A program made the position numbers and the translations under genes. This document shows, one piece after another, positions 1 through 50,651 of a stretch of DNA of 60,374 bases. Source of the DNA: Candidatus Omnitrophota bacterium (lineage in GTDB: Bacteria > Omnitrophota > Gorgyraeia > Zapsychrales > Zapsychraceae); assembly GCA_023247445.1 (NCBI GenBank), contig JAHFGL010000010.1, positions 1-60,374 on the forward strand. Direction: 5' to 3'. Under the pieces are notes generated by a model. That model was not told the DNA's origin and searched no databases. It worked only from the letters and a program-made list of their open reading frames with translations. Each line of letters starts with the position of its first letter. Position 1 is the stretch's first letter.

Positions 1-3000
1 GCCACTGGTTACAGAAGTACCAATCCCTATATTGCCACCTTCGACAATACTTAAATATCGATTTATGATCCCGGCTGTTCTTGTCCCAAACCACATGTAC
101 CCATCGCCTCCGACGCCATATCCACCCGCAATTAGTCCCGTGCCATGATCTGTATTAACAAATATAACTCTGCCTTCATTACCGGCGACCTTTGTCACAC
201 CATCGATGGCGATCTGCGCGGTCCAATTCGTTGATTCATCGACGTCTTCCGTTATCCATAAACGTGTCGGCGCGCCGGTTGTCCCGATCCCAACGTTACC
301 GCTGGTAACTGTTAACGCTGGACCGGCGCCAGCCTGTGAAATACTAAGCGCTGTTGTTCCTGTTGACGCCGTACCGCTGTTAGTAATTTGGACTAAAGTT
401 CTAGTATTCGTCGTGGTACTCGCTGAGGCAAAGTTTGCAATTTTACCCGTCGTCAGCGCATCGGCATCACCAATATCAAGTGCCGTTCCGGTTGTTAATA
501 CCGTCGGCTGGATATCAACAACATTACTGGTTGTATTTTCTCCATCAATATCTAAAGCAACAATACCGGTAGCCACATCCTGATCTAAACGCAATAAAAA
601 CGCTGAATCTGTTCCAGCGGCGGCTGGATTCTGTAAAATAATTGAATCATCCGCCGTGGTTAAGGCGATTATCGCATCGCTTCCATCCACATCTTGATTG
701 TATACTGACTGTAGCGCAATCGCTCCCGCAGTATTAGCATCCGTCCCGCAAGCTAAGACGCCATTAGCATCTGTATCAATCGTATCGCAACTTGCTAATG
801 TTGTGATTCTCGTCGTCCCTGTGACATGTAAATCTGTGCTTGGAATGGAATTGCCAATACCAACTCGGCCACTGACCGTCAATGCCCCACCCGGTGCCGT
901 ATATCCAATCCCGATGTTGCCATTAGTTGTTAATGCCGGGCCTCCAGAATTTTGCGTAATATTTAATGCCGTGACATTAGTCGTTACAGTCGCAGAATTC
1001 GTAATCTGAACTAGCGTCCTTAAATCTGCGGTGCTTATACTATTCGATGCAAAGTTGGCGATCTTTCCTGTAGTCAATCCGTTTGCATTGCCAATATTTA
1101 ATAATGTCTGTGTTGTATCCGCTGCAAAAGAAATATCTAATCGCGCTGCCGCGCCGGTGGTTCCAATCCCGACGTTATTTGCAAAATAATGTAAGTTTGT
1201 TGTCCCTGGCGCATAAATTCCCCAATTCTTAGTTCCTGCGGTCTGATCATTGATATAAAGTCCATAGGCATTAGTAATTGTACTAGCAGCTCCTTTTATA
1301 GGATTAAGAGCATACAAAGCAACAGCACTATCTACTGTAAAAGCTGTATTTGTCGTTTGTACATATCCAGCTATCGCCGTTACAAAAGTAGCATTTGCAG
1401 GATTAGGATTATCAGCGGTTGGATTTGAAATAATTCCCCAACAGGAATAAGTAGTACTACAATCATCCGCACTATCAAATGTTTGGGAAGCAGCTATCCC
1501 AATAGTATTCAATGCTGCTGCCGCCGCAGATCCAATCGCAAAACCGCCTCCATTTCCTGTAATTGATAAAGCTGGATAAACTGAATCTTGCTTAATCGTA
1601 AGTCCGACTGTTCCCACCGCGGCGGAGTTATCATTTGTAATCTGGACAAGCGTCCTTGTATCAGTTGTTGCACTATTCGACACAAAATTGGCAATTTTTC
1701 CCGTTGTCAATGCATTGGCATCACCAATATCAAATGCTGTGCCCGTTGTTAATGCCGTGGCTTGGGCATCAATGATATTCGCTGTCGTGTTCGCCGCTGC
1801 AATATCTAACGCAATTACTCCAACCGCATCTTGTTTTAATCGAAGCAAAAATGTTGAATCCGTTCCACCAGCAGCGGGATTATTTAAAATCAGGGAATCA
1901 TCGTTAGCAGATAATTGAATGGTTGTATCGCCAGCATTTGCATCATTGTCATACGCATTTTGCAGCGTTGATCCGGTTCCACTATCGCCTTGCAATACCC
2001 AATTATTCGCGGTTTCGCAGGCATAAAGTCTTTGTCCACTGGACGCATCCGTATCCATATAAATTTGTCCAACCGCGCAAGCCGCTGGCAAACTCGTCGA
2101 ACTTGGAAGTTTCAAAGCCGCTGTATTTAAATCAACCAAACCATTCGTAACATTAATGGCCTTGGCATCAGCATCTTGTTGGATGTTGAGCGCGGTCGCT
2201 CCCACCGCTCCACTGTCGTCATTAGTAATTTGTACTAATGTTCGTGTTGCTGTGCTCGCACTCGTTGAACTAAAGATCGCGGCTCCACCGGCTGTGACTG
2301 AATTTGCTGTCACTTCAACCGCCGTTGCTGTCGTTGCTGAACTTGTAATCAACATCGACCGCCCATTTGCTGTTTGCGTTATTGCAACCGCACTGCCTCC
2401 CGCCGCCTGATTAATTCCTAAGCCCACTGTTCCAACAGCAGCAGTACTCGAGTTTGTTATTTGCACTAGTGTTCTAGTATCTGTTGTTGCACTGTTCGAT
2501 ACAAAATTTGCAATTTTACCCGTCGTCAGTGCATTGGCATCACCGATGTCGAGCGCCGTTCCGGTTGTTAAGACCGTCGGCTGAATGTCGACCACATTTG
2601 CCGTTGTGTTCTCGGCATCAATATCAAGTGCGATAACTCCCGCCGTATCTTGATCAAGTCGAAGTAAGAATGTTGAATCTGTTCCCGCTGCCGCTGGGTT
2701 CTGGAAAATGATTGAATCATCCGCCGAGGTTAATGCAATCGTCGCATCCGATCCATCGGCGTCAAAGCCATAGGATCCTTGTAAATTGGCTGAACTAGCT
2801 GTTGCGAGTAATACCCAGCCCGTATTTCCACCATCCGTTGTCTTGATATACAAATTACCGTTGGTGTGATCAACACAGAGGTCACCTTTATTTCCCGTGA
2901 TTTCAGCTTCTGGCGTCGCATTATTAATAAATGTTTGATAGTCACCACCGGTGTTGGCCAATGTCACGACTGCGACCGTATCTGCTCCTCCACTATTAAT

Positions 3001-3348
3001 ATGTAACTTCGTACTCGCCGTTGTCACACCGATGCCAATTGTTCCATCCACAATTAATCCTTCGGCATCAACGCACTCTGCTCCACCTAAATCAATTCGC
3101 ATACATCCCTTCGCATTTACATTTCCATCTGAATCAATATGCAAGACTTCAGCTGGTGATGAATCTTGAACCGCAAACACACTCGATCCATCCGTTGAGT
3201 CAAGCACTGCTTCGATGTTTGTCGCTTCGCTTGTTTGCGGATTAAATAATACAAAGGCACAGAGCATCAGACCTATATATAGAGAAGAGACAAAGCTCCG
3301 CATCCATTGCCAAATATTCATCTTCAATTTTTTATTTTCTATCTTCAT
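1..3348 (-). CDS. Large secreted phage-tail-fibre-like (trimeric adhesin-like) repeat protein, 3'-truncated by the window edge (>1116 aa)
   Basis: Manual translation shows an uninterrupted frame from ATG 3348 (MKIENKKLKMNIWQW...; alternative ATG 3321) to position 1. It has a signal-peptide-like N-terminus (..LMLCAFVLFNPQTSEA|T), repeated G(N/T)(V/I)GIGT motifs and T/A/S/N/G-rich beta repeats. Absent from the ORF track because there is no stop in the window. Confidence 0.85.
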   Translation of the reverse strand, partial: MKIENKKLKMNIWQWMRSFVSSLYIGLMLCAFVLFNPQTSEATNIEAVLDSTDGSSVFAVQDSSPAEVLHIDSDGNVNAKGCMRIDLGGAECVDAEGLIVDGTIGIGVTTASTKLHINSGGADTVAVVTLANTGGDYQTFINNATPEAEITGNKGDLCVDHTNGNLYIKTTDGGNTGWVLLATASSANLQGSYGFDADGSDATIALTSADDSIIFQNPAAAGTDSTFLLRLDQDTAGVIALDIDAENTTANVVDIQPTVLTTGTALDIGDANALTTGKIANFVSNSATTDTRTLVQITNSSTAAVGTVGLGINQAAGGSAVAITQTANGRSMLITSSATTATAVEVTANSVTAGGAAIFSSTSASTATRTLVQITNDDSGAVGATALNIQQDADAKAINVTNGLVDLNTAALKLPSSTSLPAACAVGQIYMDTDASSGQRLYACETANNWVLQGDSGTGSTLQNAYDNDANAGDTTIQLSANDDSLILNNPAAGGTDSTFLLRLKQDAVGVIALDIAAANTTANIIDAQATALTTGTAFDIGDANALTTGKIANFVSNSATTDTRTLVQITNDNSAAVGTVGLTIKQDSVYPALSITGNGGGFAIGSAAAAALNTIGIAASQTFDSADDCSTTYSCWGIISNPTADNPNPANATFVTAIAGYVQTTNTAFTVDSAVALYALNPIKGAASTITNAYGLYINDQTAGTKNWGIYAPGTTNLHYFANNVGIGTTGAAARLDISFAADTTQTLLNIGNANGLTTGKIANFASNSISTADLRTLVQITNSATVTTNVTALNITQNSGGPALTTNGNIGIGYTAPGGALTVSGRVGIGNSIPSTDLHVTGTTRITTLASCDTIDTDANGVLACGTDANTAGAIALQSVYNQDVDGSDAIIALTTADDSIILQNPAAAGTDSAFLLRLDQDVATGIVALDIDGENTTSNVVDIQPTVLTTGTALDIGDADALTTGKIANFASASTTTNTRTLVQITNSGTASTGTTALSISQAGAGPALTVTSGNVGIGTTGAPTRLWITEDVDESTNWTAQIAIDGVTKVAGNEGRVIFVNTDHGTGLIAGGYGVGGDGYMWFGTRTAGIINRYLSIVEGGNIGIGTSVTSG
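379..2784 (-). repeat. Three ~111-aa intragenic repeat modules (2452-2784, 1633-1965, 379-714) plus partial copies near 1000-1100 and 2220-2330
   Basis: Shared LQxxY..D...I.L...DDS.I..NPAA.GTDS.FLLRL.QD..G..ALDI...NTT.N..D.Q.T.LTTGTA.DIGDA.ALTTGKIANF.S.S.TT.TRTLVQITN. Confidence 0.9.
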
Positions 3349-3371
3349 CTATTTTATATTGTTCATCCCCA

Positions 3372-4004
3372 TCATCTCTTTTTAAACTGATCTCTAAACT
3401 CTCGGTCTCCAATAGCCTGACCACGGAAATTAATGACATCTAAATTCTTCAGAAGACCTTTAACAACCAAAGTCTTATATAAAAGTTTTCTCTCTGTATC
3501 ATTCTTTCCTAAATCTTCATAAAGCTTGTGATGGTCAAGCTTCAAAACCCCAACCTTCCCCGAGGCTAATTGATTAAATCCAGACCAGACATAATCTGCT
3601 GGATCTTTAGCTATTTTTTCTTTAACAGGATCTAAATCAATATGGCGAGAACAGGCTAAGAAATATTTTTCTTCTTGAACGACAAAATTTTTATAGCGTC
3701 GTAAGAAAACATGCCCGATTGCTTTGTATTTTTTATTGAAATATTTGGCGTACTTCTTGGAGACAAGCTCCATAAACTTGGAAAGGCTCTCCTCTTCTTG
3801 AGGTTCGAGCAATAAGTGGATGTAATGATCCATCAAGACATAATTGAAGATCTTGACGGAAAACTGCTCTCTGGACTCATTTAAATAAGCTAAATATTGA
3901 TTTCGATCTTGATCGGATAAAAAAAGCGGACGCAGACCTGTGCCACGGCAGATGACATGGTAAATATGCCCTAGTTTCTGATAACGCATAGAGCGCATCA
4001 ACAT
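3372..4004 (-). CDS. RAYT/TnpA(REP)-like Y1 HUH transposase homologue, predicted catalytically inactive
   Basis: The YHVICRG, LF...D...Y, YVLM..xxHLLL, YFNKKY...GHVF..RY and DP.DY.WS motifs match RAYT. However, MxNHxH is MDHYIH and RYIxxNP is RHIDLDP. Confidence 0.8.
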   Translation of the reverse strand: MLMRSMRYQKLGHIYHVICRGTGLRPLFLSDQDRNQYLAYLNESREQFSVKIFNYVLMDHYIHLLLEPQEEESLSKFMELVSKKYAKYFNKKYKAIGHVFLRRYKNFVVQEEKYFLACSRHIDLDPVKEKIAKDPADYVWSGFNQLASGKVGVLKLDHHKLYEDLGKNDTERKLLYKTLVVKGLLKNLDVINFRGQAIGDREFRDQFKKR

Positions 4005-4010
4005 GACCCT

Positions 4011-4039
4011 AGCATATCAACATGCTGTGAATATGTCAA
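4011..4039 (-). promoter_or_regulatory. Sigma70-type promoter of the RAYT-like gene (leaderless or very short leader)
   Basis: TTGACA (4039-4034), 17 nt, TGn-TATGCT (4016-4011); ATG 6 nt downstream with no SD. Confidence 0.7.
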
Positions 4040-4135
4040 TAATTAGCTGCTAAATATTATGTATTTTACAGCACCTTAGTGAATAACAAAATAGAGGAAA
4101 AATAATTTAGGAAATATGTAGAAGGGAGGGCAAAC

Positions 4136-4168
4136 AAAAAAGAGCAAGGATATTATCCTTGCCCTTTT
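4136..4168 (-). terminator. Rho-independent terminator of groESL
   Basis: Minus strand AAAAGGGCAAGGATA-A-TATCCTTGCTCTTTTTT hairpin plus U-tract. Confidence 0.8.
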
Positions 4169-4180
4169 GATCTTATTATC

Positions 4181-4263
4181 GTCATCCTGAGTCCGTAGGA
4201 CGAAGGATCTCAGAATTCTTTAAGTACGTTGAGATTCTTCGCACCTTTGGTGCTCAGAATTAC
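4181..4263. repeat. REP/REPIN-like inverted doublet, family A copy 1
   Basis: GTCATCCTGAGTCCGTAGGACGAAGGATCTC ... GAGATTCTTCGCACCTTTGGTGCTCAGAATTAC; homologous to 5966-6034. Confidence 0.85.
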
Positions 4264-4278
4264 GGAATTTTAAAACTA

Positions 4279-5949
<1,671 letters not shown>

Positions 5950-5965
5950 TTAATAAAACCATTTT

Positions 5966-6034
5966 GTCATCCTGAGCGAAAGCGAAGGATCTCTTTATTC
6001 TTTGAGATTCTTCGGCCTTTGGCCTCAGAATGAC
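5966..6034. repeat. REP/REPIN-like inverted doublet, family A copy 2 (groES-groEL spacer)
   Basis: GTCATCCTGAGCGAAAGCGAAGGATCTC ... GAGATTCTTCGGCCTTTGGCCTCAGAATGAC. Confidence 0.85.
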
Positions 6035-6043
6035 GGAGATTAA

Positions 6044-6334
6044 TTAGCCAACAACTGCAAATACATCTTCTTCTCTCATGATCAAATAATCTTCACCGTC
6101 TTTGGTGCTGATTTCCGTTCCGCTGTATTTTCCATACAAAATGCGATCGCCGGCTTTAATTTCTAACGCAACAATTTTTCCAAGTTCATTCATCTTGCCC
6201 TTACCGACAGCAATAACTTTACCTTCTTGTGGTTTTTCTTTGGCTGTATCTGGAAGGACGATCCCGCCTTTTGTTTTTTCTTCGGCCTCTAAAGGCTTGA
6301 CAAGAATTCTGTCACCTAATGGTTGAATTTTCAC
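6044..6334 (-). CDS. groS: Co-chaperonin GroES
   Basis: [21 protein letters not shown]; GTG start with GGAGG SD. Confidence 0.99.
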
Positions 6335-6385
6335 TACCCACCTCCTGTTTGTTGATTGGTCTTTATATTTATTAAAAAACTTGGC

Positions 6386-6412
6386 TTAGCACTGATTCCA
6401 ATAGAGTGCTAA
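6386..6412. promoter_or_regulatory. CIRCE element (HrcA operator)
   Basis: TTAGCACTG-N9-GAGTGCTAA, one mismatch to TTAGCACTC-N9-GAGTGCTAA, upstream of groES. Confidence 0.9.
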
Positions 6413-6438
6413 TTTAACAAAATTAAAATTTTTGTCAA
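6411..6438 (-). promoter_or_regulatory. groESL sigma70 promoter
   Basis: TTGACA (6438-6433), 16 nt, TGn-TAAATT (6416-6411), overlapping the CIRCE edge. Confidence 0.6.
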
Positions 6439-6513
6439 GGATAAATTTTTTAGTAAAGCTAACTGAAGGTATTATTGAGTTTAGATTCCGGCGAGAATTA
6501 GGCCAAGAAAAAT

Positions 6514-7272
6514 TTACTTTGATGATAGCAGCGCCATGCCCTTAAAGACAAGGTCGCGGTCAATTTTATGGATCTTATGCGCAATAAAACGTTTCATCAA
6601 ATAAAGGTACCCACCAGTAACAATCACTCTTGGACGGCCCTTTAGTTGACGGGAAATACGATCAATCAACCCAACGAGCATTTCACCATAACCGTAGAAA
6701 ATTCCGCTGAGCATACTCGTCACGGTATCTTTGCCGATGAGCTTTCTCGGGGCTTCAATGTTATTAATTTTAGGCAGTAGTGCCGTTTTACGAAACAGCG
6801 ATTCAAACGACAAACGAATTCCGGGAACAATAATCCCTCCTTCATAAGCGCCGCTTTTAGAAACAGCATCAAGCGTGATGGCTGTTCCCAGATCAATGAC
6901 AATGGCTGGCGCGCCATAAAGACATTTGGTCGCGTAGGCGCAGACCAAACGATCTTGGCCCACCTGTTTTGGATTCTTGTAATTATTTTTAATGGGAACA
7001 ATAATGTCTTCGCCAACAAACAAAGGATTGATCTTAAAAATATTTTTAATTTGTCCTCGGACAATATGATTAAGTGGTGGGACGACGCTACAGACAATAA
7101 TATCAGCAATCGCATTATGATTTCGTTTTATTATTTTTAGCGTCTGCAATAGTTTTATTTTAAAGGCGCTAGTGGAAATCGTCTTATCAAAATAATAAAC
7201 CTTTATCACCTTAGAATTTTTAAGAACAGCCAGATGAATGGATGTGTTGCCTAAATCAATTGCCAAAAGCAT
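6514..7272 (-). CDS. coaX: Type III pantothenate kinase
   Basis: MLLAIDLGNT, SVVP, VGQDR, VIDLGTA, GGII.PG; real start at 7272, the upstream ORF-track extension is spurious. Confidence 0.93.
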   Translation of the reverse strand: MLLAIDLGNTSIHLAVLKNSKVIKVYYFDKTISTSAFKIKLLQTLKIIKRNHNAIADIIVCSVVPPLNHIVRGQIKNIFKINPLFVGEDIIVPIKNNYKNPKQVGQDRLVCAYATKCLYGAPAIVIDLGTAITLDAVSKSGAYEGGIIVPGIRLSFESLFRKTALLPKINNIEAPRKLIGKDTVTSMLSGIFYGYGEMLVGLIDRISRQLKGRPRVIVTGGYLYLMKRFIAHKIHKIDRDLVFKGMALLSSK

Positions 7273-50558: not shown

Positions 50559-50651
50559 CCTTCGACGCGTTCCTCGTTTCACTCGTCACTTGCTCAGGAT
50601 GGTTCTCCGCTTCTCACCAACAATGGTGAGCAAGCAAAGCGCGTCGAACCA
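50559..50651. repeat. 93-nt REP-like element, family B copy 1 (rpsN-rpsH spacer)
   Basis: CCTTCGACGCG...GCTCAGGATGG...TGGTGAGCAAGC...GCGTCGAACCA; 85/93 identical to 52556-52648 by manual alignment. Confidence 0.9.

Follow-up and report, generated by a model that had tools for sequence, protein, structure and literature searches.

A Y1_Tnp gene with altered catalytic motifs

The gene considered here encodes a small RAYT-like protein of the Y1_Tnp family of HUH transposases, and it lies at positions 3372 to 4004, on the minus strand, of a 60,374-nucleotide stretch of DNA from a Candidatus Omnitrophota bacterium (GenBank assembly GCA_023247445.1, contig JAHFGL010000010.1, positions 1 to 60,374). 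This whole stretch is referred to below as the window; the genome to which it belongs spans 2.29 Mb in 75 contigs and has 39.6% G+C. The gene sits between groEL and the 5′ part of a giant gene for a secreted protein, and the features of the locus are as follows.

1..3348, minus strand: 5′ part (1116 aa) of the gene for a giant secreted repeat protein, which runs off the contig; it starts 23 nt after the stop codon of the RAYT-like gene
3372..4004, minus strand: RAYT/TIRYT-like Y1_Tnp gene with replaced catalytic residues, 210 aa and intact (from hidden Markov models, alignments and an AlphaFold2 model)
3627..3647, minus strand: degenerate Tyr motif R120-H121-I-D-L-D125-P126 (family consensus R-Y-I-x-L-N-P)
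3816..3833, minus strand: degenerate HUH motif M58-D-H60-Y61-I-H63 (family consensus M-x-N-H-u-H)
4011..4039, minus strand: sigma-70-type promoter TTGACA-17 nt-TATGCT with TG extension, its -10 element ending 6 nt before the ATG
4138..4168, minus strand: terminator-like hairpin and T run at the end of the groEL transcript
4178..4265, no strand assigned: palindromic repeat copy, nested and roughly 82 bp long (CGTCATCCTGAG...CTCAGGATGACG), lying 174 bp before the RAYT-like ATG

The original prediction, made from the sequence of this stretch, described the gene as an intact but catalytically dead RAYT-like transposase. Indeed, the open reading frame (ORF) comprises 210 codons with an ATG start and zero internal stops, without any frameshift, and two pieces of DNA sequencing-run assembly that cover it (a 934-nt contig and a 251-nt piece) each agree with it at 0 differences, an agreement that has no bearing on expression or polymorphism. 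An RNA run of the same sample contained next to none of the sequence words and gave no piece on the gene. The protein passes the gathering cut-off of Pfam PF01797 (Y1_Tnp; 44.2 bits against 23) with a match that spans residues 13-112 and profile positions 5-109 of 121. It also matches the NCBIfam equivalog model NF047646 (REP_Tyr_transpos), albeit below the cut-off of that model (57.6 bits against 80), and it misses the cut-off of NF033573 (transpos_IS200; 19.5 bits against 55). All 24 members of an alignment designated A2 match NF047646 at E ≤ 0.001, the best of them at E 3.4e-23. Affiliation to the Y1_Tnp family, and a likeness to RAYT proteins, are thereby borne out.

Retention of the fold, which had likewise been proposed, agrees with the structural model. 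AlphaFold2, run on an alignment of 125 sequences, gave a predicted local distance difference test score (pLDDT) of 95.3 and a predicted template modelling score of 0.91, although such confidence reflects the alignment and does not respond to point changes. The top PDB match of the model by Foldseek is 4er8_A, the E. coli TnpA-REP protein (E 7e-9, TM score 0.77 on the target), with the transposases of IS608, ISDra2 and IS200 coming next (E 2e-5 to 1e-4), and a family profile searched against 4ER8 aligns the motif positions at E 1.3e-8. A single-sequence phmmer search of the PDB returned two weak, unrelated matches only, and it was the profile search that found 4ER8. The modelled fold of the window protein is therefore that of E. 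coli TnpA-REP. Beyond this core lies a C-terminal extension of approximately 65 residues (145-210), which the model predicts to be helical at pLDDT of at least 90 and which is conserved across the close relatives and the wider family.

The catalytic motifs tell of a different fate. Three alignments (MAFFT on 164 homologues, a 125-row alignment designated A3, and the profile match to 4ER8) agree on their placement: Y61 stands for the first HUH His, H63 is the second His, H121 (codon at 3642-3644) stands for the catalytic Tyr, and D125 stands for the Asn of Y-x-x-x-N-P. In 4ER8 the corresponding stretch reads D-Y-I-Y-I-N-P-V, within which H121 pairs with the Tyr and D125 with the Asn; this Asn, N119 of TnpA-REP, is described as the third metal ligand (PMC6006769). 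The three replacements first read from the DNA are thus confirmed at exactly the positions proposed, as is the change of the family RGNxR motif, which reads R20-G-T-G-L24. In the MAFFT alignment HuH is kept in 153 of 164 rows and the Tyr in 159 of 164. Among family columns conserved at 85% or more, the window protein is changed at 4 of 6 catalytic-motif positions (N60H, H61Y, Y121H and N125D) and at 1 of 22 others (N22T), a difference (Fisher p 0.003) for which the catalytic-motif set was picked once the finding was known. The Fisher tests of this analysis also count related sequences as independent, and so overstate significance. A selective loss of chemistry from a retained fold is supported for this protein.

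One might instead suppose that the active site has been rearranged rather than lost, with Tyr61 as nucleophile and His63, His121 and Asp125 as metal ligands, or with His121 itself as nucleophile. Nucleases of the Tdp1 and PLD types do use a His nucleophile, and in the window protein His and Tyr have been exchanged between positions that face each other in HUH enzymes, while Asp would be a better metal ligand than the Asn that it replaces; moreover, a Tyr-to-His change recurs in three other sequences (L040, P0131 and P0154). However, the codons for Y61, H121 and D125 are each a single transition away from His, Tyr and Asn (codon 61, for example, is TAC rather than CAC), the kind of mutation most readily produced by chance, which accounts for all three well enough. 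The reciprocal pair appears in no other sequence: L040 combines a His in place of the Tyr with an Ala in place of the first His, and L028 has an Ala instead of the Tyr. The original prediction had also drawn H60 into a rewired metal site made of H60, H63, H121 and D125, which proved unsupported because H60 is also present in P0002, a relative that retains both HUH and Tyr; its side chain, in a beta-strand, should point away from H63. We consider a rearranged active site very improbable.

An Omnitrophota clade at the head of giant genes

Y1_Tnp-like proteins constitute a very large family, with 22,417 representatives matched at E ≤ 0.001 and only 14 at E ≤ 1e-30. The close relatives of the window protein, at 39-68% identity, form one clade that was found here only in Omnitrophota. 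Of 24 further genomes in the same family, 13 contain clade matches (at least 39% identity), and the best match in 16 genomes from other families of the order is at 34%. A search of the genome_contigs collection yielded 19 loci at 40% identity or more, of which 16 are titled Omnitrophota or Omnitrophica or lie on contigs labelled 'uncultured Planctomycetales'; the other 3 belong to 'bacterium' or further Planctomycetales-labelled metagenome-assembled genomes (MAGs). The clade is present at one or two copies per genome, and within its tree the window protein groups with P0002 (68% identity) and P0012 with a Shimodaira-Hasegawa-like likelihood-ratio support (SH-aLRT) of 98.

Loss of catalytic residues is common in this clade. 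At least one of the two HUH His residues and the Tyr is missing in 16 of 34 clade proteins as compared to 6 of 149 non-clade rows. At the first His position Y, Q, S, C, T or A is found instead, which takes at least 5 changes on the tree; loss of the Tyr has occurred 3 times (to His in the window protein, Ala in L028 and His in L040), and the Asn ligand varies as well, being K in P0002, H in a paralogue on contig C24 of the same genome and D in the window protein and L028. Nevertheless, proteins without the first His can be under strong constraint. For example, L036 and L037, which both read T-I-H, differ with a ratio of nonsynonymous to synonymous divergence (dN/dS) of 0.027 at dS 0.22, compared with 0.048 for the motif-intact pair L026/L043; other pairs have dN of 0.13-0.33 with synonymous sites saturated. 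In two genomes (G002 and G007) the sole clade copy reads T-V-H, and its role there is therefore independent of an intact clade partner.

The clade is also set apart by its genomic position. In the window no terminator-like site separates the RAYT-like stop codon from the giant ORF, and the clade paralogue on C24 likewise precedes, on the same strand, a 2165-aa paralogue of the window giant. At the public clade loci a same-strand giant frame lies downstream in 17 of 19 cases (at least 1138 aa, or 501-927 aa where cut by the contig end). In 12 of them the frame spans at least 1781 aa without closing before the 6-kb flank ends, and of these 12 one follows a tandem duplicate and one is fused in frame; one more locus has a closed 1138-aa frame, and 4 have open frames of 501-927 aa that are cut by the contig end. 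As for the two loci that lend no support, one is uninformative, with 464 nt left, and one is an exception with a 317-aa frame. By the same scan a downstream frame of at least 1000 aa occurs at just 3 of 47 informative non-clade loci, a comparison in which relatives are treated as independent and significance is hence overstated, though the pattern itself is clear.

The genome of the window contains four Y1_Tnp matches, all of them different genes. In addition to the window gene these are the clade paralogue on C24 (211 aa, HuH and Tyr intact), a non-clade gene on C19 (223 aa, motifs intact) and a non-clade gene on C59 (167 aa) from which both motifs have been lost, with T-T-H at the HUH position and Leu at the Tyr:

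C59:12994-13497 (L004 1408-1911; next gene from 2010): degenerate Y1_Tnp gene, 99 nt before the gene for a 2582-aa protein

The 2582-aa neighbour has SpvB, FG-GAP and TcdB_mid Pfam matches, and the relatives of the C59 gene are distant only (≤39%), in mixed contexts. Three of the four Y1_Tnp genes thus stand directly before frames of at least 1116, 2165 and 2582 aa, in a genome where frames of 1000 aa or more number only 47 among the 2859 stop-to-stop frames that are at least 100 aa long.

The constant place before giant genes, the low copy number (one or two per genome), repeated independent loss of the first His or the Tyr, and purifying selection on proteins without the first His together make domestication of the clade as a whole well supported, and this domestication looks, from comparison of the sequences, largely independent of catalysis. 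Since an intact gene stands before giants across the family, it probably serves the giant gene rather than the movement of DNA. The domestication proposed for the window gene by the original prediction consequently holds at the level of the clade, through its synteny, copy number, repeated motif loss and selection, and is less certain for the window copy with its knock-out substitutions.

The RAYT-like gene appears to carry its own promoter. The groEL transcript ends at its own terminator-like hairpin, so that transcription of the RAYT-like gene would start afresh, and the candidate promoter just before its ATG, which had been noted as near-consensus, matches 10 of 12 consensus positions and has the TG extension. 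It is the sole 10/12 match among 4 promoter-like sites in 3100-4400; shuffled sequences average 4.0 sites, so the site count alone is no more than shuffles give. Support comes instead from conservation of the geometry in the clade, in which TTGACA lies 34-39 nt before the ATG at 12 of 21 loci (chance 0.017 per window). At the usual distance from a -10 element to the transcription start, a -10 that ends 6 nt before the ATG is expected to yield a leaderless mRNA, and we infer as much for the RAYT-like gene. Searches against Rfam, at E ≤ 1 in window positions 3000-6600 and at gathering score in the 14 clade loci searched out of 20, returned no match and no riboswitch.

Several observations bear on the organization of the giant genes themselves. 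At L030 5992-12624 (from the same genome as L012) the RAYT-like frame, which reads S-I-H and keeps its Tyr, has no stop codon and reads on in frame through the signal peptide of the giant protein and its body; the fused frame is open for 2211 aa to the end of the locus and for 2736 aa in the genome search. The 5′ ends of the giant genes on the window contig (C58), C24 and a further contig, C65, share a cassette of ribosome-binding region and signal peptide (window 2470-3360, C24:15280-16270 and C65:43700-43790), with DNA identity of 87% over 819 nt between C58 and C24 and of 90% over 84 nt, starting 7 nt before the ATG, between C58 and C65. The neighbouring RAYT-like genes share only 76% DNA identity over a 235-nt core, and the higher identity of the cassettes suggests recombination or gene conversion at giant-gene 5′ ends. 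In two Elusimicrobia MAGs, Y1_Tnp proteins of 300-340 aa with a DnaA_C-like helix-turn-helix (HTH) and Y-V-H at the HUH position (L054 6004-6909 and L046 5878-6894; L054, the only one of the two read through, keeps the Tyr) are encoded between large secreted-protein frames of 1134-1230 aa upstream and of at least 1047 to at least 1901 aa downstream. A similar pairing of Y1_Tnp and giant genes may thus exist outside of Omnitrophota.

Flanking repeats, possible function and the state of the window copy

If the RAYT-like protein acts by binding rather than by cutting, its ligands might be sought beside its gene. An upstream GTGCCA-like motif is found at 17 of 21 clade loci and an inverted TGGCAC-like motif downstream at 10, and the two make up short inverted repeats, AAAGGTGCCA ... 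TGGCACCTTT, on either side of clade genes, with both present at 9 of the 21. Relatives moreover carry GGTACC- or GTGGTAC-containing repeats in both flanks of the clade gene. GGTACC is the core of the motifs beside the clade promoter in the genomes of relatives, and it is scarce in the genome of the window (62 sites, with 322 expected from base composition). At L033 and L036-L040, the spacer of 150-320 nt that separates RAYT-like and giant genes is filled with arrays of GAAC[AG]TGG[AT]AC-like repeats, which also lie upstream; the same loci have a 13-nt palindrome, AAGGTGGCACCTT, after the stop codon and a conserved pair of membrane-protein genes (approximately 205 and 430 aa) upstream. The flanking motif AAGGTGCCA was considered as a dispersed repeat and rejected, having 7 occurrences in this genome where 11.8 are expected.

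The palindromic repeat upstream of the window gene is of another kind. The hairpin at 4181-4263, to which the original prediction had pointed as a possible ligand, folds as DNA with a z-score of -2.8 and is one copy of the palindromic repeat of about 82 bp, which has 70 loci across the genome, of which 55 are close to full length. A second structure proposed alongside it, at 50559-50651, is a strong palindrome of its own (DNA fold -20.6 kcal/mol, z -4.4) without a match to the profile of the 82-bp repeat, and hence unrelated to it. Among the copies at window positions 4178-4265 and 5964-6037 and at C24:15354-15435, one is between groES and groEL, and another is read in frame in the N-terminal region of the C24 giant ORF. 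The ends of the repeat carry CGTC/GACG, as do the CGTC-tagged repetitive extragenic palindromic elements (REPs) that are described in the abstract of PMC3733652 as having no transposase. A copy stands 39 bp past the C24 gene, and none is downstream of the window gene. Only in this genome is the repeat abundant, with 25 BLAST matches here as compared to at most one weak match in each of 3 of 40 relatives, and the presence of a copy near two of the four Y1 genes is at most suggestive of a REP-like link between repeat and protein.

This repeat also bears on the idea that the window protein is an inhibitor, a dead copy that binds the hairpins or repeats of intact Y1 proteins (those of C24 and C19) and thereby lowers their activity. 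Inhibition by truncated or dead transposases is known from other systems, as in Tn5 Inh and P-element KP, and here a dead copy does coexist with two motif-intact ones, with the 70-locus repeat close to both the window gene and its C24 paralogue. On the other hand, the repeat is almost confined to this genome whereas the clade is widespread, the window gene is not flanked by it on both sides, and genomes G002 and G007, in which the only clade copy has no first His, indicate that the role of the clade needs no active partner. We therefore regard inhibition as improbable.

A different role appears more attractive. We envisage that a leaderless transcript of the RAYT-like gene would continue into the giant gene, and that the RAYT-like protein would bind structured single-stranded nucleic acid (a DNA or RNA hairpin) at or near the giant locus without cutting it, as TnpA-REP binds REP hairpins. 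Such binding could control or assist expression of the giant gene, or act on its integrity. Candidate ligands in relatives would be the inverted AAAGGTGCCA...TGGCACCTTT pair and the GGTACC- or GTGGTAC-containing repeats; none is evident for the window copy. By analogy with TnpA-REP, a hairpin-binding regulator would be a reasonable mechanism. The explanation that we favor, to which we give about an even chance of being correct, is that the window protein is an inert member of an Omnitrophota-specific class-2 TnpA-Y1 clade that was domesticated as the first gene of giant secreted-protein operons. A bolder formulation is possible and is offered tentatively: Omnitrophota may have made a single-stranded DNA transposase into a dedicated soluble accessory of giant-gene operons, in which catalysis is dispensable and hairpin binding at the head of the operon sets or safeguards transcription of multi-kilobase repetitive genes or marks their 5′ cassettes for recombination.

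Beyond the limits already given for the model confidence and for the Fisher tests, several observations weigh against a domesticated, functional window copy. The Y61/H121 substitutions are present in no relative apart from one 100% identical protein, whose sole contig (934 nt) equals in length a contig from the sequencing run that contains the window, and the closest distinct relative, P0002, keeps H-I-H and the Tyr; with this motif-intact neighbor and with codons that are single transitions away, both residues could have been lost recently. Of 66 positions conserved in the clade the window protein retains just 54, third lowest of 34, a long tree stem leads to its lineage, and both the GTGCCA-like motif upstream and the inverted copy downstream are absent from its gene. 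The intact C24 paralogue in the same genome could make it redundant. Finally, a third giant gene (C65, 2906 aa) has no Y1_Tnp partner, so that the pairing must be frequent rather than obligatory.

Most of these points are what one would expect of a young pseudogene, namely a redundant paralogue lately inactivated by two transitions (His61 to Tyr and Tyr121 to His) that now drifts and is open merely for lack of time; after 10 neutral substitutions the chance of no stop codon would still be 0.59. Plain drift would not, however, be expected to cluster changes in the catalytic motifs, nor does it sit well with a promoter retained at 10/12 consensus plus TG. The window-specific changes at conserved sites (7) are not significantly more than those of P0002 (4), and many clade members with degenerate motifs are strongly constrained, from which it follows that a protein may cease to catalyze and still be functional. 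Comparison of the window protein with P0002 also points to continued constraint: they differ at 13 of 72 conserved sites as compared to 42 of 92 variable sites (p 2e-4), and since 5-6% of random base changes in the window ORF would make a stop codon, most of its divergence arose under selection. DNA of a closer relative was sought, with best matches of 51% identity in genome_contigs and 40% in metagenome_contigs and no second genome of the genus in the collection. Taken together, a recent pseudogene seems rather unlikely, and a retained non-catalytic function is more likely than early decay, at roughly twice the odds and no higher. We judge the window copy to be the most degenerate member of a fast-evolving sub-lineage, and likelier to be in use than dead.

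Comparison with known systems

The nearest system of known structure is the TnpA-REP/RAYT protein of E. coli (4ER8), which has the same fold and the same class-2 frame of HuH and Y-x-x-x-N-P, and which likewise occurs at 1-2 copies per genome. TnpA-REP binds REP hairpins, as stated in the title of the 4ER8 entry, and RAYT is itself regarded as a domesticated transposase (PMC8266576). Unlike TnpA-REP, the window protein has its nucleophile Tyr, first HUH His and Asn ligand replaced, carries about 65 extra C-terminal residues, shows no clear REPtron arrangement and occupies a fixed place before a giant gene. With the IS200/IS605 TnpA proteins (ISHp608, ISDra2 and IS200) it shares the HUH/Y1 core fold; in contrast to them, the window gene is not multi-copy, has no adjacent tnpB, does not show the class-1 Y-x-x-x-Q context and is without identified subterminal hairpin ends.

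Among described groups we read subclass 2.1 of TnpA-Y1, together with the TIRYTs, as the closest, an assignment made from text descriptions. The term TIRYT appears, in the literature searched, only in PMC6006769 (Quentin et al. 2018) and PMC3733652 (Di Nocera et al. 2013). Subclass 2.1 proteins are described as having a conserved C-terminal extension and no REPs nearby (PMC6006769), and the window protein resembles them by that description, sharing the class-2 context, a C-terminal extension and an apparent absence of nearby REPs. TIRYT genes are flanked by terminal inverted repeats (TIRs), and their catalytic motifs are reported to be conserved in all TIRYTs (PMC3733652). The short inverted repeats that bracket clade genes are comparable to these TIRs, and some relatives carry the DnaA_C-like HTH. 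However, the clade repeats have a core other than the published GGGGWSAS, neither of them flanks the window gene, and catalytic motifs are lost in 16 of 34 clade rows. Since the window protein fails the catalytic features by which RAYTs and TIRYTs are defined, we file it as a derived, inert relative of these groups rather than as a member.

The giant-gene context is the main new point of this analysis. The sections consulted of PMC6006769 and PMC3733652 do not mention a linkage to giant genes. The passages searched of a 2023 preprint on Omnitrophota giant genes hold 0 occurrences of transposase, IS200 or Y1_Tnp, those of a 2026 preprint on the same subject report only transposase flanks of the IS110, IS5 and IS1634 types, and no paper in the literature searched combined 'Omnitroph' with 'IS200'. 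A small soluble first gene with a nucleic-acid-binding fold would provide a handle on the expression and control of giant genes. In the survey of PMC6006769, sequences without HuH or Y motifs were judged probably non-functional and excluded, and 722 of 924 were kept. The clade described here, which is conserved, selected and provided with a fixed genomic partner, suggests that this discarded, motif-less class may be functional, and it would offer a natural case in which the HUH fold has been kept for a non-cutting role.

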